Made by a program: the position numbers and the translations under genes
NCBI GenBank assembly: GCA_018675335.1
Contig: JABGYH010000007.1
Location: forward strand, 111,902 to 175,901
DNA: 64,000 nt
Direction: 5' to 3'
Origin: Candidatus Woesearchaeota archaeon
GTDB lineage: Archaea; Nanobdellota; Nanobdellia; Woesearchaeales; UBA11576
Shown: positions 9,241 through 63,982 of the stretch, piece by piece
Numbering within the stretch: position 1 is the stretch's first letter
How the letters are laid out: each line of letters starts with the position of its first letter
Notes under the pieces: generated by a model
The model's database searches: none
What the model saw: the letters and a program-made list of their open reading frames with translations, nothing else
What the model was told of the DNA's origin: nothing

Positions 9241-10281
9241 TTATAACAATGATGCGAACACTTCAAATTTTTGTTCCCTATAACTAATTAATGTGTCATA
9301 ATTTTTAACTCGATCTTTAAATTCAAGACGGATCTTACGAATAGTGTCATGAAATCCCTTTTGATTTCTAGCAACAACTTTTAACACAATATTATAATCC
9401 CCCATTGTTTTCATTGCACGAACAATATTTGGGTGCATCCTTACAAGTTGCTTGAATTTCATCTCATCTTCTTTAGTCATGTATTTCATATTCAAAAATA
9501 AAGTATAAAATTGATATCCTATTAAAGACCAGTTAATGATTGTGCTAAATTGTTGAATTACGCCTTTGTCCACTAGTTTTTTAATTCGGTAATTAACAGT
9601 ATCTGCACTGACACTTAATTTTTCAGCTAACGCATATAATGATTCCCTGCCATTTTTTGCGAGAAGATTCATTAAATTCCTATCAGTTTCATCCAATTTA
9701 ATATCATCTTGCCCTAATTCTTTATGCTTTTTTGGTTTATCCAAATTTTCGATTTCAGGTGGCTCTTCAATTTTTTGTTTTACAAATTCTCTTGGTATGT
9801 TAACATAGGAATAATTTTTGATAACATGAAAAATTTCCATATTTTCAACTAGATCAGAAAACTTTGTTAAAAAATCATTTAATACTTCATCAAATTCATC
9901 AACAGTTTTAGAATAAACCGCCAATTCAAGCTCCCATTTATCACTATATTCTATAATATTTAGAAAATTAGGATTTTTTTTAAGATAATCAAATAATTCT
10001 TTTTCTTTGCTTGACTCTAATTCGACAATTTGCAAATATACCTTAAAATGCTTATAATCAAATAAAGAATATTTAGATAAAATTGTGAATTTTTGTATAA
10101 CTCCTAATTCTTGCATGCGATTAATTCTATACCTAACTGCATCTCGTGATAACATCACTTTTTTTGCAAGCTCAGAAAATGTTAAACGACAATTATTAAC
10201 TAACAACCCAATAATTTTCCTATCTTTTAGGTCGAGCTTAGGAAGCTCAGAAACTTCATCCAGTATTCTTGTTACAACCAT
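9241..10281 (-). CDS. Tandem-fused Lrp/AsnC family transcriptional regulator (two HTH+RAM modules)
   Basis: Two repeats of an HTH (DRKIIGLLVNNCRLTFSELAKKV / DRNLMNLLAKNGRESLYALAEKL) each followed by a RAM-like domain. 346 aa is about 2 x 170. Confidence 0.7.
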   Translation of the reverse strand: MVVTRILDEVSELPKLDLKDRKIIGLLVNNCRLTFSELAKKVMLSRDAVRYRINRMQELGVIQKFTILSKYSLFDYKHFKVYLQIVELESSKEKELFDYLKKNPNFLNIIEYSDKWELELAVYSKTVDEFDEVLNDFLTKFSDLVENMEIFHVIKNYSYVNIPREFVKQKIEEPPEIENLDKPKKHKELGQDDIKLDETDRNLMNLLAKNGRESLYALAEKLSVSADTVNYRIKKLVDKGVIQQFSTIINWSLIGYQFYTLFLNMKYMTKEDEMKFKQLVRMHPNIVRAMKTMGDYNIVLKVVARNQKGFHDTIRKIRLEFKDRVKNYDTLISYREQKFEVFASLL

Positions 10282-16089: not shown

Positions 16090-17316
16090 ATGGCAATATT
16101 AGAATTTGAAGATATGAGTTTTGAAAAATTTGAGAATCAAATTAGAATTGTTTTTCTTAAAAATTATGAATGCTTCATCCCAATAGATGAACTAACGAAA
16201 ATAGGCGAGTTTGAAATTTTTCCAAATAAAATAGAACTGAAAAATATTAATGAAAATATTGCTGAGAGAAAATTTAATAACTTACTTACTCGCGCATTTC
16301 AAAATTTAACAAACACAATAACTAAGAAAAAAACAATTTATGTTCACAAACAAAGTAAAATACCCTTGAAAGGCACAATTTATTTTGGAGTTGTTGACCG
16401 AGGAAGTGATATGTTAGATGTGAGACCACTTACTGGCTGTAATCTTAATTGCGTATTTTGCTCAGTTGATGAAGGCATAAGCTCAAAAAAAACAACTGAT
16501 TATGTAGTGGAAAAAGATTATTTAATACAAGAACTTAAAGAATTAATAAAATTTAAACAAAAACAAACAGAAGAAAATATCCCATACTCAGTATTTATCA
16601 ATCCCCTCGGAGAACCATTACTTTATCCGAAACTAGTTGAACTAATTGCAGATATTAAAAAAATAAACGGAATTAAATTAATTTCAATTATGACTAATGC
16701 AGAATTATTAACTCCCAAAAAAGCAGATGAATTAATTAATTCAGGACTCAATCAATTAAATATTTCAATACATTCATTGGATCCTGAAAAAGGGAAAAAA
16801 ATAATGGGAACAAATAATTACTCCACTGAAAAAATTAAAAAAACTATTTTATACATAAGAGAAAAATACCCTTTAGTGAAAATCATACTCGCACCAGTTT
16901 TTATGAAAAAATCAAATGAAGAAGACATAAAACAAATAATTAAATTTGGACAAGATAATGGTTGCGACACAGGAATTCAAAATTTCTTACGATACAAAAC
17001 AGGCAGAAATATGCTTAAAACAAAAGAAGTTAAATTCATTAAATTCTTTGAGATGTTAAAACAATGGGAAACTGAATTTAAAATAGAACTTATAAAAAAT
17101 TATAAATTAACCAAAACACCCCAATATGATCGAGCGTTCAAAAAAGGGGAAATTGTTAAAGCTGAAATTATTGCTCCGGGAAGATTGCCTGGCGAAGTTC
17201 TTGCAAAAGCCAACAATGTTTTAATAACTGTAACTGATGTTAAAAATAATTCAGGATTTCTAAAAGTAAAAATTGTCAGAATTAAAGATGGACTTTATTT
17301 AGGAATTCATGCGTAA
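16090..17316 (+). CDS. Radical SAM enzyme with a C-terminal TRAM-like domain, a probable RNA-modifying enzyme
   Basis: CNLNCVFCS (CxxxCxxC). The C-terminal segment KGEIVKAEIIAPGRLPGEVLAKANNVLITV...KVKIVRIKDG resembles a TRAM fold. Confidence 0.65.
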   Translation: MAILEFEDMSFEKFENQIRIVFLKNYECFIPIDELTKIGEFEIFPNKIELKNINENIAERKFNNLLTRAFQNLTNTITKKKTIYVHKQSKIPLKGTIYFGVVDRGSDMLDVRPLTGCNLNCVFCSVDEGISSKKTTDYVVEKDYLIQELKELIKFKQKQTEENIPYSVFINPLGEPLLYPKLVELIADIKKINGIKLISIMTNAELLTPKKADELINSGLNQLNISIHSLDPEKGKKIMGTNNYSTEKIKKTILYIREKYPLVKIILAPVFMKKSNEEDIKQIIKFGQDNGCDTGIQNFLRYKTGRNMLKTKEVKFIKFFEMLKQWETEFKIELIKNYKLTKTPQYDRAFKKGEIVKAEIIAPGRLPGEVLAKANNVLITVTDVKNNSGFLKVKIVRIKDGLYLGIHA

Positions 17317-24385: not shown

Positions 24386-26332
24386 ATGGCATTTGAAAAA
24401 AAATCTCCAACAGAGGAAGAATTTTTAGTACAAATAAAAGCCAATAATCCAAATGCAAACTTCGAATTAATTCAAAAAGCATACCGCTTTGCAGAAAATG
24501 CGCACAAAGGACAAAAAAGAGAATCAGGCGAAGATTTTTTTATTCATCCCTTGCAAACTGCAACAATTCTAGTACAATTAAAAGCTGACACTGCAACTAT
24601 TTGTGCAGCACTATTACATGATACAGTAGAAGACACCCCTAATTCAATCGACGTAGTTCGAAAAGAATTTGGAGAGGAAATTGCCGTACTTGTTGAAGGA
24701 GTTACCAAAACACAAGGCATTTGGTTTGATTCAAAAGAAGAATACAAAGCAGAAAATCTTCGTAAAATACTTCTTGCAACAACAAAAGACTTCAGAGTTA
24801 TAGTTGTCAGACTTGCAGACAGACTCCACAATATGCGAACTCTTTCTTATTTTAGAGAAGATAAACAAAAAAGAATAGCAAAAGAAACAATGGAAATTTA
24901 TGCACCCATCGCACACAAATTAGGAATTTGGAGAATTAAAGGAGAGTTAGAAGATTTATCATTAAGATATTTAGATTACAAAACATACAGCATTCTACGA
25001 GAAAAAATAGCTGAGAAAAGAGGAGAACGAGAAAAAGCAACAACTGATCTTACTCAACAAATAAAAGATGCACTAAAAAAAGAAGGAATCGATGCAGATG
25101 TAAAAGGACGTGCAAAATATTTCTACTCAATATATAAAAAGATGACAAAAAAGAATCGTCGCTTTGATGAAATATATGATTTAATAGCATTCAGAATAGT
25201 TACTTCTCGCGTCGAGGAATGCTATAAAGCAGTTGAAATAATAAATAAATTATTCACACCTCACCCAGAAAGATTTAAAGATTATGTAGCACACCCGAAA
25301 GCCAACGAATACCAATCAATACACATGACTGTAGGGTATAAGAAAAAATTACTCGAAGTTCAAATAAGAACTAATGATATGGACCACATCGCAGAAGAAG
25401 GAATTGCTGCACACTGGAGATACAAAGGAACAGAACGAGACAAGAAATTTGATAGAAAAATTGCCTGGTTAAAACAAATTCTTGATTGGAAACGAAAATC
25501 AAAAAACGCAATAGAATTCGTCGAGTCACTAAAAATAGATTTATTTGAAAATGAAATAATAGTTTTTACTCCACAAGGAGATCCGATTTCATTACCTGAA
25601 TGTGCAACCCCTGTTGATTTCGCATATGCAGTCCATAGTAATTTAGGAAATCAATGCAGTAAAACAAAAGTCAATAATAAAATCGAATCACTAGATTACG
25701 AACTTCACAGCGGAGATGTTGTCGAAGTAATCACTCAAAAAAATGCTAAACCCTCTAGGTCGTGGCTTAATTTTGTAAAAACAACTAAAGCAAAAAGTAA
25801 AATTAGAATTTTCTTAGAAATCAAACCCGATAAAAAACTTGGAGATAAAAAACGAAAAGCAATAGCTCGCGGCGAACTTGAAGAAAAAATACCCGTACTT
25901 GAAAATATACTAATCCACGGAAAAGATTCTGGCAAAAATAATTTAATAAAATTGTCAGGATGTTGTGAAATAAAACATGGAGAAAAAATAGTTGGATTTT
26001 ATACAAAAGAAAAAAAAATAAGCATCCACAAACAGGGATGTATCAATATTCACTCACTTGATTCAAATCGCGAAGTAAAATTAAGTTGGATAGTTCCAAA
26101 AGATTATAATATTAAAAAACTCAAAGTATTTGTTGATGATAGGCCAGGAGTTTTAGCAGATATTTTAAACTATTTGGGAACCAAACAAATCAAAGTTAAA
26201 TCTGTTAATACAAGAGCTAAGAAAAAGAAAATACTACTAACATTCAAAATAGAACTTTCTGATGAGAATAAATTAAATAAAACGATTCAAGAAATAAGTG
26301 AAATCCGAGATGTTATTGAAACTAGAATTTAA
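24386..26332 (+). CDS. Long RelA/SpoT-homologue (p)ppGpp synthetase/hydrolase: HD + synthetase + TGS + ACT domains
   Basis: HD: HPLQTATILVQL...LHDTVEDT. Synthetase: DLIAFRIVT...YQSIHMTV. TGS: IVFTPQGDPISLPECATPVDFAYAVHS. C-terminal ACT-like region. Confidence 0.85.
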   Translation: MAFEKKSPTEEEFLVQIKANNPNANFELIQKAYRFAENAHKGQKRESGEDFFIHPLQTATILVQLKADTATICAALLHDTVEDTPNSIDVVRKEFGEEIAVLVEGVTKTQGIWFDSKEEYKAENLRKILLATTKDFRVIVVRLADRLHNMRTLSYFREDKQKRIAKETMEIYAPIAHKLGIWRIKGELEDLSLRYLDYKTYSILREKIAEKRGEREKATTDLTQQIKDALKKEGIDADVKGRAKYFYSIYKKMTKKNRRFDEIYDLIAFRIVTSRVEECYKAVEIINKLFTPHPERFKDYVAHPKANEYQSIHMTVGYKKKLLEVQIRTNDMDHIAEEGIAAHWRYKGTERDKKFDRKIAWLKQILDWKRKSKNAIEFVESLKIDLFENEIIVFTPQGDPISLPECATPVDFAYAVHSNLGNQCSKTKVNNKIESLDYELHSGDVVEVITQKNAKPSRSWLNFVKTTKAKSKIRIFLEIKPDKKLGDKKRKAIARGELEEKIPVLENILIHGKDSGKNNLIKLSGCCEIKHGEKIVGFYTKEKKISIHKQGCINIHSLDSNREVKLSWIVPKDYNIKKLKVFVDDRPGVLADILNYLGTKQIKVKSVNTRAKKKKILLTFKIELSDENKLNKTIQEISEIRDVIETRI

Positions 26333-26394: not shown

Positions 26395-26733
26395 ATGGAA
26401 GAAACAAAAAGCCAAGAAACCATAGAAAAATTCAAAATAAAGACCAAAAGCGTCCTAATAAGTAGATTGCCCCGTAAAGAAGGCGATGACTTCAAAACAG
26501 TGGTTTTAAAGCTTTATGACATCAATAACCCACATAAAACCGCAGAGTTTCCTACTAAAACACTAGAATTCGCTAATAATGAGAAAGTAAGAATTAGACG
26601 ACTTAATGTTTCATACTATATGGAAGGCAATGATATTGTAATAAACGACTTAGAAGAAATATATATAGAAAAACGACCTAAAAAGCTTTTACTACGAGGA
26701 TATCAAGTCGAAGTAGAAGAAAGAGACGAATAA
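26395..26733 (+). CDS. Hypothetical protein (112 aa)
   Basis: ORF immediately downstream of the RSH gene on the same strand. No motif recognised. Confidence 0.4.
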   Translation: MEETKSQETIEKFKIKTKSVLISRLPRKEGDDFKTVVLKLYDINNPHKTAEFPTKTLEFANNEKVRIRRLNVSYYMEGNDIVINDLEEIYIEKRPKKLLLRGYQVEVEERDE

Positions 26734-26793: not shown

Positions 26794-27531
26794 TTATATT
26801 TTTCCAACTAACACAACCGAATCTCCCGAATCATAATCTAATTCTAAAACATCTTTAAAAAATGCAGATGCTTTTTTATGATGTTGAACTTGATCATACA
26901 AGCAACGACCATAAAGTCCCCTAATTACCATTCGATCATCAGGCAATTTTGGTGTTGGAACTGCCAGTGCAATATCGCGGATGGTTTCAGGAATGGCCCC
27001 TTCAGACAATGCAACATTTGGAAATAACTCTGACACCAGATTACTCGTTGCAGCATAAATAACTGGATTTTGAGTTCGCATAACTAAATAATCGAATCCC
27101 GATTCTGAAAGATCACTTATTGCGCGTTTGTTAACTTCGTAAAAATGTTTATGTTTTTGAATTTCTTTTTCTAACACAACACCTTTAAGATGTAAAATTT
27201 TTTGACCCTTATGCTCAATAAATTTATATGAACAAAAACCCTTAATTTTATCACCATACGAAATCAGATAAAGCGCATCACAATTAAATGCATTATCCCT
27301 TACTTCTTCAATAGGGATGTCAGTTCCAAACCCATCTCTTGCAATCCCTAACAGAATATCAGTTAATTCATCTTGATTAGCACCCCTAAAAACTTCTCCC
27401 GGAGCTCTTACTAAATCAACTCGAACATCGGAGAGACCCAAACGTTTACCTAAAGAATGATTTCTTGCAAAATCACTCGCCATTAATTCTTTTGTTACCC
27501 CTTCTGTAAATATTAAATCTCCAAATACCAT
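26794..27531 (-). CDS. Hypothetical protein (245 aa)
   Basis: Clean ORF. A GNAT-like core is possible, but the Q/RxxGxG/A motif was not found. Confidence 0.4.
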   Translation of the reverse strand: MVFGDLIFTEGVTKELMASDFARNHSLGKRLGLSDVRVDLVRAPGEVFRGANQDELTDILLGIARDGFGTDIPIEEVRDNAFNCDALYLISYGDKIKGFCSYKFIEHKGQKILHLKGVVLEKEIQKHKHFYEVNKRAISDLSESGFDYLVMRTQNPVIYAATSNLVSELFPNVALSEGAIPETIRDIALAVPTPKLPDDRMVIRGLYGRCLYDQVQHHKKASAFFKDVLELDYDSGDSVVLVGKI

Positions 27532-27977
27532 TTTTTTATTCCTCCAATAAAATCTAATTATTAATTTTTATAATTTAATTTAGCGCCATAGCTAAACCTA
27601 GCTAAAACCTAATAATTCGTTGTGACAAATATTTTATGAAAAACACATTTGTCGTCGATAAAACTAACGTTAAAAACTAGTTTAATTACTAAAATCGCCA
27701 GCGTTTAACCTTGTTAAAGAAAAAGAAACAGATAAAACTAAGTGATTCAAAAACAAAACAATGAGACATAAGTGCAACTAACGAAAAGAAATTATTGCCC
27801 TTGCCAGGCACAACCACCCAATATAATTGATGATTTCATAGTATTAATTAAACGAGTTCATAGTTTATAAGTCTTTTGGATGAAAAATTATTCAAAATAA
27901 AGATTAAACCAAATAATTAGGTGAACTGCAAACATACAAAAAATATACAGAATTTAAAATACCAACTGAATTAAACA

Positions 27978-28415
27978 TCATTCAAAATTAAATCCTTCTC
28001 GTTTTATGTCTTCCAAAATATAATGAATTTCAGTGTTAGCAATATTAAATACGTCAAGCGACTCAATAAAATAATCCAATTCGCGCACATTACGATGTAC
28101 TGTTTCTGCGATAAAATCCCACCCATTGTTAATTTTAAATAAATTATTCACAGACTTATGAAGTAAAAGATGAGATCTTAATCTATTCCTAAAAATAGGA
28201 TCACATTTTATGAAAATTTGTGCTTTAACATCAAAACCCAATTCAGAAAAATTAAGTAAAATTGTTGAATGAGAAATAATCTGATGTTTTAAAAACTTTA
28301 AAGAATCAAAAAGAGTAGAAATAGGAATATTTGTTTTTTTACTAATAACCGTAAGTTTTTGCCTAGAATCTACCCTTAGCTGAGTTAACAGCTTTATATT
28401 TTTTGAATCCAACAT
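27978..28415 (-). CDS. Lrp/AsnC-family regulator (single HTH+RAM)
   Basis: HTH followed by a KINNGWDF RAM-type segment. Paralogue of 29484..29936. Confidence 0.65.
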   Translation of the reverse strand: MLDSKNIKLLTQLRVDSRQKLTVISKKTNIPISTLFDSLKFLKHQIISHSTILLNFSELGFDVKAQIFIKCDPIFRNRLRSHLLLHKSVNNLFKINNGWDFIAETVHRNVRELDYFIESLDVFNIANTEIHYILEDIKREGFNFE

Positions 28416-28502
28416 AATACCAACATAATAATCAAACCAGTATTAAAAAGCAGTTACCAAAAAAGTTAACTTTTTAAAATAAACCACCTTAACAAATTTA
28501 TA

Positions 28503-29468
28503 ATGTTAATTGATGCGATAAATAACAAAATTTTAGCAGAATTAGATCAGAACTCTCGCGCTCAATATTCTACAATTGCAAAAAAACTTAAATTAAGCAA
28601 ACAATCAATAAAAAAACGTATCGACAAATTAATAGATGAAAAAATAATAACTCAATTTACGACAATTATAAATTCTGCAATCTATCCATTAAACCCTGCT
28701 CAAATATTTATTTCACTCCATAACACTTCAAAAGATGATAAAGAAAAAATCGTTTTGGAACTATTTAATAATTTCAAAATACCCCAATTAACTGTTTGTG
28801 ATGGGACCTATGATCTTTTCTTCGGATTACGTGCAGAAAACATTAGAGAATTTGATTGCGAATTAAGAAAAATATGCACTAAATATTCTAGCCACATCAA
28901 AGACCGAAAAATTATCCAGTTAGTTGAAACCAAATTACTTCCAAGAACTTTTTTGACTGGAAAAAAAAGAGAAATAATTCCCTCAGATAAAGGATTTCAC
29001 TCTAAAATAAATAAAACTCAACTTAGTCCATTAAAAGAAATGGATTATGCAATTCTAAATAAACTCGCAGAAAATCCTAAAATCAGTTATGTTTCGTTAG
29101 CAAATGAACTAAATATTACAACACAAACTGCAATGAATAAAGTTAAAAATTTAGAAAAATCAAACATCATCATAGGCTATTCTTACCTTTTAGATGCACA
29201 TAAATTTGTTCATTATCAACTTTTACTTGCATTCACAACAATCACCAAAGAATTAGACCAAAAACTAAACAATTATTTTTTGATCAATCCCAACGTGATT
29301 TTTGTTAGTAAAACTTTAGGCGAATTTGATTACACAATCGCGTTTGAAACTAATAATTTTGAAGACTACAGAAAATTCAATGAAGAATTTAAAAAAGAAT
29401 TTTCAACACACCTAAAAAGTTTTGTCCCACTTTTAGTTACTGACTTTGTAAAATTAAAATTTCTTTAA
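28503..29468 (+). CDS. Tandem-fused Lrp/AsnC-family regulator (two modules)
   Basis: Two HTH segments (NNKILAELDQNSRAQYSTIAKKL / DYAILNKLAENPKISYVSLANEL), each followed by a RAM-like domain. Confidence 0.65.
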   Translation: MLIDAINNKILAELDQNSRAQYSTIAKKLKLSKQSIKKRIDKLIDEKIITQFTTIINSAIYPLNPAQIFISLHNTSKDDKEKIVLELFNNFKIPQLTVCDGTYDLFFGLRAENIREFDCELRKICTKYSSHIKDRKIIQLVETKLLPRTFLTGKKREIIPSDKGFHSKINKTQLSPLKEMDYAILNKLAENPKISYVSLANELNITTQTAMNKVKNLEKSNIIIGYSYLLDAHKFVHYQLLLAFTTITKELDQKLNNYFLINPNVIFVSKTLGEFDYTIAFETNNFEDYRKFNEEFKKEFSTHLKSFVPLLVTDFVKLKFL

Positions 29469-29483
29469 AAAAAATTACCTTAA

Positions 29484-29936
29484 TTAAACTGCATGATCAG
29501 GTTTAAACTCTTCTTTTTTAATCTCATCAATTAAATAATGAATCTCTTGATTTTCTAAACCAAATCTTTGAGATATGTTTTCTAAAAAAAAATCTAAATC
29601 TTTTACATTAGGGTGTATTGTTTCAATCATAAAATCCCACCCATTATTTATTTTATAAAACGAATTAACCGAGTTATTACAACTCAAGTGATTTCGTAAA
29701 GACTCTTTTGACTCCCCTGACGTTTTTAAAAAAACCATTGCCCGAGTATGATATCCTAATTCAGAAAAATTAAGTAACACAGTATTTTTATGAATAATAT
29801 TTTTTTGAAGAATTTTTATCGAATCAAATAGAGTCGAAACTGGAACTCCCGTTGTCTTACTAATCTTAGTTAGTTTTTCCCTAGAATTATCTCTTAGACA
29901 AGATATTAGTTTTATTAGTTTTTCATTCATAAACAA
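29484..29936 (-). CDS. Lrp/AsnC-family regulator, paralogue of 27978..28415
   Basis: About 50% identical to the 27978..28415 product (VSTLFDS..., LLNFSELG, KINNGWDF). Confidence 0.65.
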   Translation of the reverse strand: MFMNEKLIKLISCLRDNSREKLTKISKTTGVPVSTLFDSIKILQKNIIHKNTVLLNFSELGYHTRAMVFLKTSGESKESLRNHLSCNNSVNSFYKINNGWDFMIETIHPNVKDLDFFLENISQRFGLENQEIHYLIDEIKKEEFKPDHAV

Positions 29937-30160
29937 ATCAACTCACAATCCGGAAAAATTTTGGCGAAAACACCTATTCCCATCAACCTAATAACACTTA
30001 AGTAAAACTAACTTTTAATAATTCGGATTTTTGATTGTAATAAAAAAAGTAGATCCAAAAAATTTGTGCTCAATACCGGAAGAAATACAACAAAACTGCA
30101 AGTATTATGAACACTCAACAATTATCGTAAAAACTACGGGAAAAAATCAAGTTAGAAAAC

Positions 30161-30562
30161 TTACTTTTTCTTAGAAATTGCAGACTTTTTTTGAGATTTA
30201 AGTTTAGACCTATTTTGAGATTTAAGTTTAGACTTAGTTTTCCTTTTGTTGTTTAATTCAGTAACCTTTCTAATACCTCGTTTTGTTTGACGAGTAACAT
30301 GATTAAATGATTTTTTGTGCAAATCATAATACCAATGCTTAGCTGCCTTGTAACCTTCCCTGCCACAAAGATAAACCCCAAAAAATAACAACACCCAAGT
30401 TAAAATATAAATATAAAAATTAATTTTGATAAATAAACTTGCAGAAGCAGGATGCAGAATATATAAAAAAGTACCAGGTTTTGTAATAAACCCTACAATG
30501 AAGCTTATAATAATAAGAAGAAACCCTACCAAAAATCTGATTGAATGATCTTTTATATCCAT
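30161..30562 (-). CDS. Small membrane protein with a Lys/Ser-rich C-terminal tail
   Basis: Two TM helices plus a KSKLKSQ repeat tail. Confidence 0.4.
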   Translation of the reverse strand: MDIKDHSIRFLVGFLLIIISFIVGFITKPGTFLYILHPASASLFIKINFYIYILTWVLLFFGVYLCGREGYKAAKHWYYDLHKKSFNHVTRQTKRGIRKVTELNNKRKTKSKLKSQNRSKLKSQKKSAISKKK

Positions 30563-31364: not shown

Positions 31365-31889
31365 TTACGCAGCATATGAATGATGCCCCTCCAGTGGAAG
31401 TTCACGTTGCGCTAATACATACCCTTTCACAGTTCGACTTCCAACTTCTTTTCCAGGAATCGTTTGCTTAAATGTAAGATCGACTCCTACAATTGAATGT
31501 TCGTCCATTAACAACTTAAGTGCTTCAGAATACTGCGGCGCATGAACTCTTCTACACTCACCGCCAATAACCATTCTTGATGCAACTCGATTTAATAACG
31601 TATCCTCAGCAATTCCTTGTTCAGATTCGTTTAATGCCGCAACAATATAAGTTTGTAACGTAGGAATTTGATTTCTTGCATATACTATATTACCCACACC
31701 GATTGGTTTTCCAGAATCAATAGGTCTTGCAATTAAAACCTCATCTTCAACCATTCTTGCTAAATGTGATTCAAGATCAACTCCTGCAACTATTTGTGAC
31801 AATGCTAAAAAAGAATCAGGTCTAGCTTCAAAAAAAGTAAGCAATGCATCATATAATCCCGAACTTCCTGATATTAATTTTTGATTCAT
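31365..31889 (-). CDS. Hypothetical protein (174 aa), GC-elevated
   Basis: Clean ORF. No family recognised. Confidence 0.4.
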   Translation of the reverse strand: MNQKLISGSSGLYDALLTFFEARPDSFLALSQIVAGVDLESHLARMVEDEVLIARPIDSGKPIGVGNIVYARNQIPTLQTYIVAALNESEQGIAEDTLLNRVASRMVIGGECRRVHAPQYSEALKLLMDEHSIVGVDLTFKQTIPGKEVGSRTVKGYVLAQRELPLEGHHSYAA

Positions 31890-32574
31890 TTAAACTACCC
31901 CCAAAAAATAATTTAATAATTATACTGATTCAAAATATACTCCCGTTTATAAGAATTTCTAGCTTGAAATATTCGCGAAAAATTAGTATAAAAAAGAAGT
32001 TATATAAATCGCCCAAAATAAATATTATTATCACTTTAACTAATTCTCCTCGATGATTCTTTGAATTGCATAGTGCACACTAATCGCATTTTTATTTTTT
32101 AAAAACAACTAATTAAATTTGAATATAATTTTTGAAATGTGAAAAAATATTTAGAAAAACTAATTACAAGGGATACTGCATTCTTTTTATACAATATCAA
32201 AAATAAACTAGAAATAAAGTTGAGTTTTATTTTTTTATTAAATTTAACACATAGCATGCACACAAATAATAAATCAATAACATATTTAAATACTTTTTGT
32301 TACTATAATAACATTAAGTTTTTATATTAGTTTGTAATTAATATGATAATGTCAAACAAAATTACCTCAATTCAAATTGGATTAATACTCACAATTGTAA
32401 ATTGCAATAAACTGAAGCGTAAGTAAATAGAAACACATAGGCAAACAATTATTTCTAATTTTATTTTTTATTAAAAAACTGGTTAAAACACACAATAAAC
32501 CACAATAAAAAATCTAAAAAATTGAGACTAAAATCTAAAAAAATATAGGAAAAAAATAATGCGAGGGCACACAT

Positions 32575-33918
32575 ATGAATGTTTACAAATTTGGAGGCAC
32601 CAGTCAAAAAGATCGTCAATCATTACAACAATGTATAAAAATTATCAGAGATGGGTCTGTGAACGATATAGTCATCGTCTCAGCACCCGCAGGAGTTACA
32701 GATTTATTAATTCAAGGATTTGATGAACAAACCAGCACAGGAGAATTTACTCGAGAAACGTTTGAAAAAATTCAATCTAGATTTTTTGAAGTTCATCCAG
32801 AACAAGAAAAACGAGCAATAATTGAATCTGGAATGAATGAATTAGAGCTTAGAATATCCCAGGGAATGCAAGATGGTTTTGGAACAGAACAATTAAAAGA
32901 TTTACACTATGCAAGAATTGCTTCATTTGGCGAATTTTTAGAACCCAGATTATTTTCAGAAAATTTAAAAATGGAAGGAATTAGAAGTCGCGTTGGAAGA
33001 ATTGAACAAACAATGAGAGTTCATGGGCCACCAAGAAATGCAAAATATGATCGATGTTCCGACCCAAGAATACTTGAAGAAGTTAGTGGATTTGATGGAG
33101 TCACAGTATTTAGTGGGTTTTATGGCTTTGATTCTGATGGAAACATATTAGTGTTTAGCCGAGGCGGATCAGATTTTACCCAAACACTAGTTTCAAGAGC
33201 AGTAAATGCGGACGCTTGCTTTAATTGTACAGATGTTAATGGAGTATTCCCCATAAATCCAAACCTACTTACTCCAAATGCTGCTGAAAAATTAAGAACC
33301 ATACCCGAATTACAATATGAACAAGCACAAGAATTATCAAAACAAGGTGCTAAAGTTTTACATCCTAAATGTATCGAACCATTAAAAGAAAAAGGAATTC
33401 CACTTTATGTAATAAACACATTTGATCCCCTTGGTCCAAACACAGTTATTGGTCCTGAAAGTCGAGCATACATCGGAGTTAATGCAGTCACAGGACGAAA
33501 ACAAGCATTCACCAAAATAAGTTTAACTACTGGATGCATGGATGGCGCAACAGGATACTTGCAAAATTTTGCAAATTCATTTGAAGGAGTAGATGTAGAA
33601 ACAATAAGTACATCTGCCATCGAATTAAGCGCAGGATTTTCAGATCCAACTGCAGATACGGATTTAATACTTGAAAGATTAGCACAATATGGAACTGCAA
33701 AAAAACAAAATGGACAATCCATGATTGCAATAGTTGGAAAAGGAATTGGCAGAAGTCCTGCAATAATTGGTAAGTTTTTTTCCACTTTAGGAGTTTTGGA
33801 CATTCCAGTTGATCAAATAACCAAATCAAATGATTATTGTCTTTGGGTTTCAATACCACAACACCATTATGAACGTGCAATGGTTGGAATCTACAATGCA
33901 ATGCTTACTCGACAATAA
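32575..33918 (+). CDS. lysC: Aspartate kinase
   Basis: KFGGTS N-terminus, SRGGSDFTQT...TDVNGVF...GAKVLHP amino-acid-kinase motifs, C-terminal ACT region. Confidence 0.8.
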   Translation: MNVYKFGGTSQKDRQSLQQCIKIIRDGSVNDIVIVSAPAGVTDLLIQGFDEQTSTGEFTRETFEKIQSRFFEVHPEQEKRAIIESGMNELELRISQGMQDGFGTEQLKDLHYARIASFGEFLEPRLFSENLKMEGIRSRVGRIEQTMRVHGPPRNAKYDRCSDPRILEEVSGFDGVTVFSGFYGFDSDGNILVFSRGGSDFTQTLVSRAVNADACFNCTDVNGVFPINPNLLTPNAAEKLRTIPELQYEQAQELSKQGAKVLHPKCIEPLKEKGIPLYVINTFDPLGPNTVIGPESRAYIGVNAVTGRKQAFTKISLTTGCMDGATGYLQNFANSFEGVDVETISTSAIELSAGFSDPTADTDLILERLAQYGTAKKQNGQSMIAIVGKGIGRSPAIIGKFFSTLGVLDIPVDQITKSNDYCLWVSIPQHHYERAMVGIYNAMLTRQ

Positions 33919-34026: not shown

Positions 34027-35307
34027 ATGAATTCAGAAAAACTAATCGAAGCTGCTCAAAAATTTAAAACTCCACTTTATGTTTATGATGGAAATTTAAT
34101 TAAAACAAGATATAGAGAATTAAATCATTCATTGAATTGTGCAACTGATGTTAAAACTAAATTATTTTATGCAATGAAAGCAAATTATAATCCGTCAATA
34201 TTAAAATTATTGCTAAATGAAGGTGCAGGAATTGATGCAGTAAGTCCTGCAGAAGTAATGCTCGCTTTAGAAGTAGGATTTTTCCCAAACCAAATACTTT
34301 TCACAGCAAATAAAATAACTGATGAAGAAATGAGACTTGTCAAGTCAACAGGAGTTTTATTTAATATTGGCTCAATTTCTCGATTAAAAAAATATTGTAA
34401 AGAATTCCCAAAAAGCTCAGTATGCATTCGATTTAATCCCATGATTGTTGCAGGAGAAACTGAAAAAGTTAGAACTGGAGGAGAAAATAGCAAATTTGGA
34501 ATTTTTATTTCACAACTAGATCAAGTATTAGAAATTACCCGCTCAGCAGATGTAAAAATTGTTGGAGTTCACGAACACACAGGGTCAGGAATTCCCGAAA
34601 TGGTACAAATGAAAGCAGGCATGCAAAATCTACTTGACATAGTTACTCCAAAAAATTTTCCAGACCTAATATTCGTAGATTTTGGAGGAGGATTTAAAGT
34701 ACCATACACCCCCGGAGAAGAAAAAATTAATTATGATTTATTTGGAAAAGATGCAACACAAATTTTTCTTAATCGAACAAAGGATTTTTACACACAATTT
34801 AATCGACGCATTGAAATGTGGTTTGAACCAGGAAAATATCTTGTTGCAGAATCAGGAAATTTACTCGTTGAAGTTACTGCAATCAAACATAACCCCCATA
34901 AAACATTTGCAGGAACAAATTCAGGCTTCCCTCAGCTCATAAGACCTATGTTTTATCAAGCATACCACCACATAATAAACTTAACAGCAAACCAAGATAA
35001 TCAACGTAGAAATAACTGTGACGAAATCTCAAAACAAATACACCAATATGATATTGTTGGAAATATTTGCGAGAGTGGTGATTGTTTTGGCGTGAATCGT
35101 GAAATGGAAGAAATACATGAAGGAGACATACTATCAATTCAAACTGCCGGAGCTTATTGTTATTCAATGGGTAGCGTTTACAATTTAAGAGTAATGCCTG
35201 CCGAAGTCATGTTTTTAAATAATTCAATTACACTCATTCGTAAAAGACTAACTGAACAAGAGCTAGTCGCACAAATAATTGGAGAATGTAGTACAGATAC
35301 TGAATAA
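34027..35307 (+). CDS. lysA: Diaminopimelate decarboxylase (Orn/DAP/Arg decarboxylase family 2)
   Basis: PLYVYD, YAMKAN (PLP Lys), EPGKYLVAESG, CESGD motifs. Confidence 0.8.
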   Translation: MNSEKLIEAAQKFKTPLYVYDGNLIKTRYRELNHSLNCATDVKTKLFYAMKANYNPSILKLLLNEGAGIDAVSPAEVMLALEVGFFPNQILFTANKITDEEMRLVKSTGVLFNIGSISRLKKYCKEFPKSSVCIRFNPMIVAGETEKVRTGGENSKFGIFISQLDQVLEITRSADVKIVGVHEHTGSGIPEMVQMKAGMQNLLDIVTPKNFPDLIFVDFGGGFKVPYTPGEEKINYDLFGKDATQIFLNRTKDFYTQFNRRIEMWFEPGKYLVAESGNLLVEVTAIKHNPHKTFAGTNSGFPQLIRPMFYQAYHHIINLTANQDNQRRNNCDEISKQIHQYDIVGNICESGDCFGVNREMEEIHEGDILSIQTAGAYCYSMGSVYNLRVMPAEVMFLNNSITLIRKRLTEQELVAQIIGECSTDTE

Positions 35308-63082: not shown

Positions 63083-63982
63083 ATGAGACGAAAAATAATC
63101 AAACAAGGTGCATCAACGCTCACAGTTAGTTTACCTGCTTCATGGGCAAAAAAATTCAGTTTAAATTCCGGAGACGAAATAAACCTTGAAGAAGATAATA
63201 AAAAACTCATAATCTCAACTCAAAAAGAATTCAAAAGTAAAAAAAGTGAAATTAATATTAGCTCATGGAGTAGAAGTTTAGTTTTTGTTTCCATAACCAA
63301 CGTATACATAAGAGGAGACGATGAGGTCATTGTAAAATATAAAGAACCAAAAGAAGCAGACTGGGTCATGCACATGACTGAAAGTTTAATTGGTTATGAA
63401 GCCGTCGAACAAACAAAAAATCATTTACTCATAAGAGATTTATCAGGAAATAATGAAGTAGAATTTGATATGATCGAAAGACGACTATTTCGCCTAGTAT
63501 TATTTATGGCAAAAGATGGTCTTGATTGTTTAAAGAAAAAAGACATAACTCAATTAAAAGAATTATGGATAAGGGATCGCGAAGTAAATAAATTCTGCGC
63601 GTATTGTTTGCGAATTTTAAATAAAAAAGGCCACAAAGACTTTGAAAAAACACAACACCACTACAACGTAATTCAATTTTTAGAATTACTCGGCGACGAG
63701 TATTCAAGACTTTACAAAAATACAGAAAAAGGAGTTAGAAAAGAATTAATACCACTATTTGAGCAAATTGTTAAAATGAATGAAGATTTTTATAATTTAT
63801 TTTACAACTATGATCCTAATCTTGCAATGAAAATACTCGATCAAAAAAATGATATTCGCGATCAAACTAAAAAAGTATATAAAAATGTAACTAGCGAAGA
63901 ATTACAGTTCACCTATAGGATGAGAAAGATTGCAGAACTAATAGCAGACATTATGAAAATCATGCTGGTTATGATGTGTTAA
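63083..63982 (+). CDS. PhoU-like regulator with an N-terminal AbrB/SpoVT-type swapped-hairpin DNA-binding domain
   Basis: KIIKQGASTLTVSLPASWAKKFSLNSGDEINLEED (AbrB-like), then a helical PhoU-like repeat. Confidence 0.5.
   Translation: MRRKIIKQGASTLTVSLPASWAKKFSLNSGDEINLEEDNKKLIISTQKEFKSKKSEINISSWSRSLVFVSITNVYIRGDDEVIVKYKEPKEADWVMHMTESLIGYEAVEQTKNHLLIRDLSGNNEVEFDMIERRLFRLVLFMAKDGLDCLKKKDITQLKELWIRDREVNKFCAYCLRILNKKGHKDFEKTQHHYNVIQFLELLGDEYSRLYKNTEKGVRKELIPLFEQIVKMNEDFYNLFYNYDPNLAMKILDQKNDIRDQTKKVYKNVTSEELQFTYRMRKIAELIADIMKIMLVMMC

Follow-up and report, generated by a model that had tools for sequence, protein, structure and literature searches.

What kind of regulatory unit is formed by three neighbouring Lrp-type regulator genes in a Woesearchaeote genome, and how did it arise? 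The genes lie in a 64,000-nucleotide stretch of Candidatus Woesearchaeota archaeon (assembly GCA_018675335.1, contig JABGYH010000007.1, positions 111,902 to 175,901 of the forward strand), which was analysed at its full length and is referred to here as the window. The window has a G+C content of ~30% and an archaeal gene content (aIF2-alpha, GINS51, LonB, aIF5A, PAC2, Kae1/TsaD). The trio consists of two short genes, S1 and S2, on either side of a longer gene, D, in the order S1 <- -> D -> <- S2. We consider it likely that the trio is a conserved cassette of Lrp/AsnC regulators (feast/famine regulatory proteins, FFRPs), made up of an anciently duplicated pair (S1/S2) and a fused, pseudo-dimeric protein (D), and that it works by the mechanism proposed below. 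The trio is a variation on a well-known family, composed of ordinary-looking regulators that are already annotated as Lrp/AsnC, and not a new kind of system.

Single-module and tandem Lrp-type proteins of the locus

S1 (27978-28415, minus strand) encodes a single-module regulator of the Lrp/FFRP type of 145 amino acids (aa) and S2 (29484-29930, minus strand) one of 148 aa. Both open reading frames (ORFs) are recognized by a hidden Markov model (HMM) of the S family, S2 as a mainstream member of the subfamily (232 bits) and S1 as a divergent one (199 bits) that forms an outlier branch in a neighbour-joining (NJ) tree of the S proteins. The start codon of S2 is most likely the ATG at 29930 rather than the TTG at 29936, which would give a protein of 150 aa, because S-family N-termini read MN(E/P/Q)K. 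The initial annotation had described S1 and S2 as clear paralogues of about 50% identity, and the alignment bears this out: 72/142 residues are identical (51%, E=1e-51) and the motifs VSTLFDS, LLNFSELG and KINNGWDF occur in both proteins.

In Pfam searches S1 and S2 stay under the gathering score for every domain, with AsnC_trans_reg reaching 17-18 bits, and their identity as Lrp proteins is based on a family profile searched against the PDB and on structure prediction instead of Pfam. The profile, built from 34 S-family members and aligning from residue 5, matched FL11/PH1519 best (1.5e-16), followed by halophilic Lrp, PH0140, LrpC and Grp; the Lrp-like enzyme NirDL was reached at 2.4e-5. An AlphaFold2 (AF2) model of S2, made with the family alignment, contains a winged helix-turn-helix (wHTH; three helices and a wing) followed by a RAM domain with strands (E) and helices (H) in the order E62-70, H72-84, E88-93, E100-106, H109-123 and E125-133, at a mean predicted local distance difference test (pLDDT) score of 81.7. 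The FL11/DNA complex was the top match of this model in Foldseek.

Across many species the S proteins are ~60% identical to each other, compared to 25-40% for D, and 13 alignment columns are invariant, among them R13, R17, T21, P30, S32 and T33. All 186 confirmed relatives among the GTDB species representatives come from metagenome-assembled genomes (MAGs) of the Woese-/Nanoarchaeota type. Judged from these alignments, S1 and S2 belong to a strongly conserved subfamily specific to Woese-/Nanoarchaeota, of which the nearest characterised relative is the lysine/arginine-responsive FL11 of Pyrococcus (PH1519; PDB 1ri7, 2cyy and 2e1c), the best match in both sequence and structure. FL11 and the S proteins have the same wHTH+RAM layout, but they are just ~24% identical, and the S proteins differ in their recognition helix (STLFD), their effector loop (NNGWD), the lack of a Thr-x-Thr pair and their confinement to Woese-/Nanoarchaeota. 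Many TPA (Third Party Annotation) 'binchicken' MAGs with S genes (L008, L009, L016-L018 and others in our survey of S loci) carry the title 'uncultured Methanosarcinales archaeon'. In gene content and in their S and D families they match Woese-/Nanoarchaeota, and these titles look like mislabels.

D (28503-29468, plus strand) encodes a single chain of 321 aa with two Lrp modules in tandem. The N-module comprises residues 3-143 (nt 28509-28931; 93.9 bits with a module HMM) and the C-module residues 177-316 (nt 29031-29450; 92.6 bits), and they are joined by a flexible linker (~residues 147-176, nt 28941-29030). A second single-chain tandem Lrp of 346 aa, D2, is encoded outside the cassette (9241-10281, minus strand). 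Pfam detects two HTH_AsnC-type stretches each in D (65 bits) and D2 (93 bits), with a cut-off of 27, and the NCBIfam full-length Lrp, LysM and AsnC models each match both proteins twice. The Pfam RAM model detects only the C-terminal RAM in D and D2, of which the D2 C-module passes (36.5 bits). The module HMM, built and iterated on related loci and run on all window ORFs of at least 60 aa, finds D twice, D2 twice and S1 and S2 once each, which makes exactly six Lrp modules in the window. The initial annotation had read two HTH+RAM units into each long protein and had named the HMM module boundaries beforehand as the point on which this could be refuted; these boundaries hold.

In the AF2 model of D both halves adopt a full wHTH and a beta-alpha-beta-beta-alpha-beta RAM domain. 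The model is compact (pLDDT 92.6, predicted template-modelling score (pTM) 0.88) and low pLDDT is confined to the linker (~residues 160-178). With the whole chain as a query, Foldseek returned only NirDL (4ch7/4czc), with template-modelling (TM) scores of 0.61-0.63 and E values of about 1e-15 over 325 columns at 13-14% identity. The single modules of D matched FFRPs, with target-normalised TM scores (TMt) of 0.71-0.83 and 20-24% identity. Because of the pTM value and the whole-chain match to a single-chain protein, the two modules are predicted to pack against one another and form an intramolecular pseudo-dimer, in line with what had been proposed initially from the sequence. Among solved structures, only NirDL of Hydrogenobacter thermophilus (4ch7/4czc; AhbA/AhbB 4czd/4un1) has two Lrp-like modules in tandem on a single chain. 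In siroheme decarboxylase the same barrel is built from either two paralogues or one fusion (PMC4835899), and this choice between heterodimer and fusion parallels S1+S2 versus D.

In sequence, D resembles DNA-binding FFRPs. A profile of the D family matched FFRPs in the PDB at 1e-24 to 1e-26, compared to 9e-5 for NirDL and 1.5e-4 for AhbA. The recognition-helix Tyr-Arg is kept in 64-66 of the 69 N-modules and in 50-56 of the 69 C-modules, and the subfamily to which D itself belongs has an invariant S32-K33-Q34..K37-K38. An exhaustive search of 1.84 billion representatives found 1,598 clusters of the D type (E<=1e-10). Among the best 150 of these, nearly all members are 315-350 aa long and match end to end. 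Named members come from several DPANN phyla (Woese-, Nano-, Aenigm- and Micrarchaeota) and from a single-amplified genome (SAG) labelled Thermoplasmatales. At one survey locus (L091, 1242-2188) a close D orthologue appears split into ORFs of 207 and 89 aa, maybe by a frameshift, pseudogenization or an assembly error.

Lrp/FFRP proteins are the best-studied archaeal regulators and, to our knowledge, all characterised members are built from separate chains that form symmetric dimers, with effector sites between dimers. The D-type proteins represent a large and ancient family, with more than 1,500 sequence clusters and mainly in DPANN archaea, in which the dimer is hard-wired in one chain. Such single-chain tandem proteins could recognise asymmetric operators and have two effector loops that differ from each other. 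If so, they would be useful for generating regulatory diversity from few genes in genome-reduced archaea, and as a scaffold for single-chain Lrp engineering. NCBI names the exact D protein 'Lrp/AsnC family transcriptional regulator [Candidatus Woesearchaeota archaeon]', and thousands of such sequences are already deposited in the databases with generic labels. In the accessible literature, searches on Lrp regulators of tandem, fused or double architecture and on Lrp proteins of Woesearchaeota returned no relevant description, and a 2010 review of the family makes no mention of tandem or fused Lrps (PMC2995911). D is in this sense an uncharacterised architectural variant of a known family.

Cassette conservation, a 13-bp promoter box and the proposed mechanism

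A linkage survey covering 86 S loci and five D-centred loci (scanned with an alignment of four D sequences) shows that the arrangement recurs in relatives. The full S-D-S cassette is present in the window and in one other lineage, GCA_041665465.1 (survey locus L001; S convergent, D, S divergent), in which D is 40% and the S proteins are 53-60% identical to the window proteins. Divergent D/S pairs were found at L012, L039, L044 and L087, a convergent pair at L023 and looser linkage at L004 and L011. At about 25 surveyed loci there are at least two S-family genes, in many cases arranged directly in tandem. In the window, S1 and D share a divergent promoter region of 87 bp (28416-28502) with TATA-like A/T boxes ~25-30 nt before each ATG, and the convergent genes D and S2 have their stop codons 15 bp apart (29469-29483). 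In the sister genome GCA_041665465.1, D and the convergent S gene end 1 bp apart (L001, 4930). Separate terminators would not fit into these distances, and the 3' ends of the two convergent transcripts, from D and from S, probably overlap.

For phylogenetic footprinting, 105 distinct S-family upstream regions (86 from the main family and 19 from a lower-scoring subfamily, S') were compared with 522 control upstream regions. The single non-generic word that was enriched is CGGAAA/TTTCCG, present in 24/86 S promoters compared to 36/522 controls (p=1e-7); the further enriched words were TATA-like and Shine-Dalgarno-like. The word resolves into a 13-bp box, CG(G/A)AA-N3-TT(C/T)CG (CGRAA-N3-TTYCG, hereafter S-box), in the 5+3+5 format of FFRP sites. 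Allowing at most one mismatch, the box was found in 8/19 S' promoters compared to 18/521 controls (p=5e-7), and allowing at most two mismatches in 32/86 promoters of the main S family compared to 86/521 controls (p=2e-5). It is also phased: 14 of the 59 site-gene pairs, with non-Lrp genes among them, have the box at -64 to -56 from the start codon, and a second cluster is found at ~-111. Since hits in the control regions are phased at -64 to -56 as well, CGRAA-N3-TTYCG is, as far as these promoter sequences tell, a positioned promoter element, and it probably marks a small regulon. Its location at ~-60, just upstream of the TFB recognition element and TATA box (BRE/TATA), would suit an activator. 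Phased boxes occur at L004, L008, L013, L016, L017, L019, L026, L033, L036, L044, L070 and L083, in front of S'-subfamily Lrp genes and unrelated ORFs of 402, 396, 443 and 522 aa. The survey thus yields a testable cis-element for Woese-/Nanoarchaeota promoters. The SELEX site given for FL11 is CCGAAA[AAT/ATT]TTTCGG (PMC2715240) and, set beside this published site (C-CGAAA-WWW-TTTCG-G), the S-box has an identical 5+3+5 layout and a half-site that is almost the same.

Lrp/AsnC regulators bind palindromic boxes of 13-15 bp, often in the promoter of their own gene. In the window, the sole intergenic site with at most one mismatch to the S-box is CGGAA-AAA-TTTTG at 29951-29963. This candidate autoregulatory operator of S2 carries one mismatch to CGRAA-N3-TTYCG and is located 21-33 nt before the S2 ATG, where it overlaps an A/T-rich TATA-like stretch. 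At the orthologous position in L001 the S gene is preceded by CGGAA-AAT-TTCCA at -15 to -3. Because the box overlies the S2 core promoter and the L001 gene has a similar site, it is reasonable to infer from the promoter sequences that S2 represses its own transcription. A local S-box regulon was considered for the window and rejected; no second intergenic site with at most one mismatch and no phased -60 site was found. A perfect 16-bp palindrome, AAAAAGTTAACTTTTT, is located at 28460-28475 in the S1/D divergent promoter region beside a GGTAAC half-repeat. It was discarded as a shared operator, with four occurrences in the window compared to 2.8 +/- 1.7 in shuffled sequences and none in the orthologous intergenic regions. 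A comparison for DNA repeats or operators common to the S1 and S2 promoters returned coding paralogy alone.

In the mechanism that we propose, S-type proteins would bind 13-bp FFRP-format boxes of the type CGRAA-N3-TTYCG, and binding to the box over its core promoter would lead to autorepression of S2. With two non-identical HTHs, D would recognise an asymmetric operator of two different half-sites. The tight and recurrent linkage suggests that S and D may control one another or assemble together via their RAM domains, in the manner of FL11 and DM1. FL11 and DM1 form a hetero-octamer in which different Lrp-family chains co-assemble through RAM domains, and Lrps are known to regulate each other's genes (PMC2995911). 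The present case would differ, as DM1 is a stand-alone RAM protein and the cassette encodes two full-length single-module proteins and one covalent pseudo-dimer.

The effector-binding octamers Grp (ST1022, Sulfolobus tokodaii) and E. coli Lrp/AsnC have the same fold as S and D. In Grp the ligand is held by Y77, the G99-D102 loop and T132/T134 of the neighbouring dimer (PMC2504300). These threonines, described as 'highly conserved in all known Lrp/AsnC proteins', lie on beta5, contact the ligand carboxylate across the dimer-dimer interface and stabilise the octamer (PMC2504300). S and the two modules of D retain equivalents of G99 and D102: G97 in 31/34 and D99 in 28/34 S proteins, within a nearly invariant NNGWD motif; G101 in 67/69 and D104 in 63/69 N-modules; and G273 in 44/69 and D276 in 46/69 C-modules. 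The difference between the N- and C-module loops is real across the aligned D family and, together with the different recognition helices of D, agrees with the asymmetry that the initial annotation had attributed to the fused protein. The covalent pseudo-dimer in D would also alter what a 'dimer-dimer' site can be.

Several observations weigh against the cassette reading. S and D are not always linked: D is absent within 5 kb of most S loci, and no S gene lies within 3 kb of two close D orthologues. The neighbour most often seen beside S is a ~300-aa AbrB/SpoVT+PhoU protein, found at 37/80 loci and divergently adjacent at 32/80 (for example L037, 3932-4855, and L001, 3397-4353). The survey thereby also yields a conserved S/AbrB-PhoU gene pair, of which the AbrB/SpoVT+PhoU copy in the window (63083-63982, plus strand) lies 33 kb from the S genes. 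The S-box signal is strongest in the S' subfamily, which the window lacks, and is weak in the main S family at one mismatch or less (7/86 compared to 18/521, p=0.05). The window site itself has one mismatch, is off the phased -60 position and is not significant alone, as five sites in 64 kb is about the number expected by chance; the promoter region shared by S1 and D has no S-box. Finally, in an approximate mapping made by HMMER alignment to FL11 and the C-terminus of E. coli Lrp, Grp T132/T134 has no equivalent. In S, position 128 is K, Q, H or R (T in 1/34) and position 130 is I in 25, V in 8 and A in 1 of the 34 proteins, and neither D module has a conserved Thr/Ser pair in the 69 members. 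With these contacts missing from the sequences, the effector may be non-canonical or absent.

The last point bears on a different role, in which the S proteins would be chromatin-like Lrps that organise DNA globally in small genomes and have no amino-acid ligand. Some archaeal Lrps are described as architectural (PMC3584215), and the missing Thr-x-Thr contacts, the presence of several S copies in many genomes and the unusual conservation of S (13 invariant columns at ~60% identity, where D drops to 25-40%) would all be consistent with such proteins. We nevertheless regard this role as improbable: a specific 13-bp box that is phased at -60 in a restricted number of promoters points to specific regulation, and the nearly invariant NNGWD effector loop suggests a conserved ligand or interface.

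Also doubtful, and in our estimate a long shot, is a single hetero-oligomeric regulator formed by S1, S2 and D, in which D would nucleate an Lrp-type ring that is completed by S1 and S2 dimers. If it existed, one conserved cassette would encode an Lrp assembly that is asymmetric of necessity, has four distinct HTHs and several different effector sites, and is the transcription-factor counterpart of NirDL-NirG-NirH. Gene conversion restricted to the C-terminal RAM third of the S genes of the sister species (see below) would then reflect selection for a common assembly interface.

Origin of the S and D genes

The conserved cassette of S and D regulators could be old or could have been formed in place. 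The initial annotation had favoured the second possibility and proposed that a local duplication generated the regulatory family. On a recent local duplication, S1 and S2 would have arisen in situ and D from the same amplification, which would make the family young and partly redundant. The neighbouring position of S1 and S2 and the long motifs that they have in common fit this proposal, as does the finding that the two S copies flanking D in GCA_041665465.1 (L001, 4492-4929 and 6001-6438) are 73% identical and stand together in the tree. We now consider it very unlikely, and the sequence comparisons largely refute it.

In a joint NJ tree of the S proteins and the 69 D-family members cut into halves, three clades were obtained: one with all 69 N-modules and one stray C-module, one with 68/69 C-modules and one with all S proteins. 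Because N-modules, C-modules and S proteins form separate, ancient clades, the tree indicates that one ancient fusion made the D-type family and that D and D2 are not derived from S1 or S2. Pairwise identities agree with the tree. The D modules are ~20% identical to S1/S2, and D and D2 are distant paralogues with 22% identity; D2 is much closer to its orthologue P0065 than to D. S2 shares 59-63% identity with the S proteins of other genomes and only 50% with S1. At the DNA level the similarity of S1 and S2 reaches 73% at most, over a best stretch of 97 nt, and no recent high-identity tract or conversion tract was detected between them.

The S-D-S cassette recurs in a species with a D protein of just 40% identity, which implies that the duplication of S is old. 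The close relationship of the two S copies in that species has a different cause. Codons 97-144 of these copies are ~96% identical in nucleotide sequence, with a third-position identity of at least 0.9, whereas over codons 1-84 third-position identity is just 0.31-0.56 and synonymous sites are saturated. On this pattern the L001 S pair carries a gene-conversion tract, covering the C-terminal part of the RAM domain, overlaid on old paralogues, and the 73% identity is explained by this tract and not by an independent duplication.

Other functions considered and the genes around the trio

An enzymatic function of the trio, as a tetrapyrrole-modifying complex comparable to siroheme decarboxylase (NirDL + NirG + NirH; AhbA/AhbB), would account for the whole-chain structural match of D to NirDL, for weak AhbA/AhbB NCBIfam matches and for the analogous pattern of one double and two single genes, the decarboxylase being known both as heterodimer and as fusion (PMC4835899), but it deserves hardly any credence: D scores 32.2 bits with AhbA (cut-off 140) and 22.6 with AhbB (cut-off 125), S2 scores 23.3 with AhbB (cut-off 125), both family profiles prefer FFRPs to NirDL, and that of D also to AhbA, by many orders of magnitude, the HTH residues that read DNA are conserved, and no invariant or near-invariant His is found in the S (34) or D (69) alignments. 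In the decarboxylase the siroheme-binding His is on a beta-strand of the domain (PMC4835899). The window has no haem-pathway genes near D, and its only radical-SAM ORF (16090-17316) is MoaA-like, with 27-44 bits for NirJ/AhbD models that have cut-offs of 500-650. Siroheme decarboxylase is ruled out by these cut-offs, profile scores, residues and context. A CARF/Csa3/CasR or other defence regulator was rejected as well, as the PADLOC matches of D cover only the wHTH (profile positions about 117-190) and no part of the CARF sensor domain that precedes the wHTH in these regulators; S1 and S2 had no PADLOC matches.

With the trio read as a regulatory cassette, its neighbourhood in the window includes genes related to amino acid metabolism. 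A full-length RelA/SpoT gene (24386-26332, plus strand) encodes HD, synthetase, TGS and ACT domains (TIGR00691, 680 bits, cut-off 499). Long RelA/SpoT homologue (RSH) enzymes are uncommon among archaea. In another Woesearchaeote, a 60%-identical copy is found close to the S genes (L004, 11735-12543). On the other side of the trio, at 2.6-5.4 kb, an aspartokinase with an ACT domain (32575-33918, plus strand) and lysA, encoding diaminopimelate decarboxylase (34027-35307, plus strand; 338 bits, cut-off 298), are located; FL11, the nearest characterised relative of S, is lysine-responsive. The initial annotation had pictured the locus as an amino-acid-sensing hub in a genome with few other regulators, and these neighbours are suggestive of a possible sensing role of this kind. 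The promoters of RelA/SpoT, aspartokinase and lysA contain no S-box, and the RelA/SpoT-aspartokinase-lysA neighbourhood is not conserved in the relatives surveyed. RelA/SpoT was dropped as a conserved partner, being present just in the window and in the L004 lineage.

The 446-bp gap between the S1 stop codon and the start of the next gene (27532-27977) contains no ORF of at least 60 aa, and more than 15 further gaps above 250 bp occur in the window. As an RNA gene, the gap gave just a sub-threshold match to a C/D-box small nucleolar RNA (snoRNA)-like model at 27826-27885 (27 bits, E=0.23), and no support was found for small ORFs of 25-42 aa within it. A gap of 685 bp (31890-32574) precedes the aspartokinase gene. 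The trio is flanked by ORFs at 26395-26733, 26794-27531, 30161-30562 and 31365-31889, for which Pfam, NCBIfam and PADLOC gave no match at E<=1e-3. Among these, the 174-aa ORF at 31365-31889 has an amino-acid make-up that is noticeably less A/T-biased than that of the neighbouring ORFs. The ORF at 30161-30562 (minus strand) encodes a small predicted membrane protein and contains a 24-nt tandem duplication (30182-30229, 92% identical), which encodes the repeated KSKLKSQ tail of its product.

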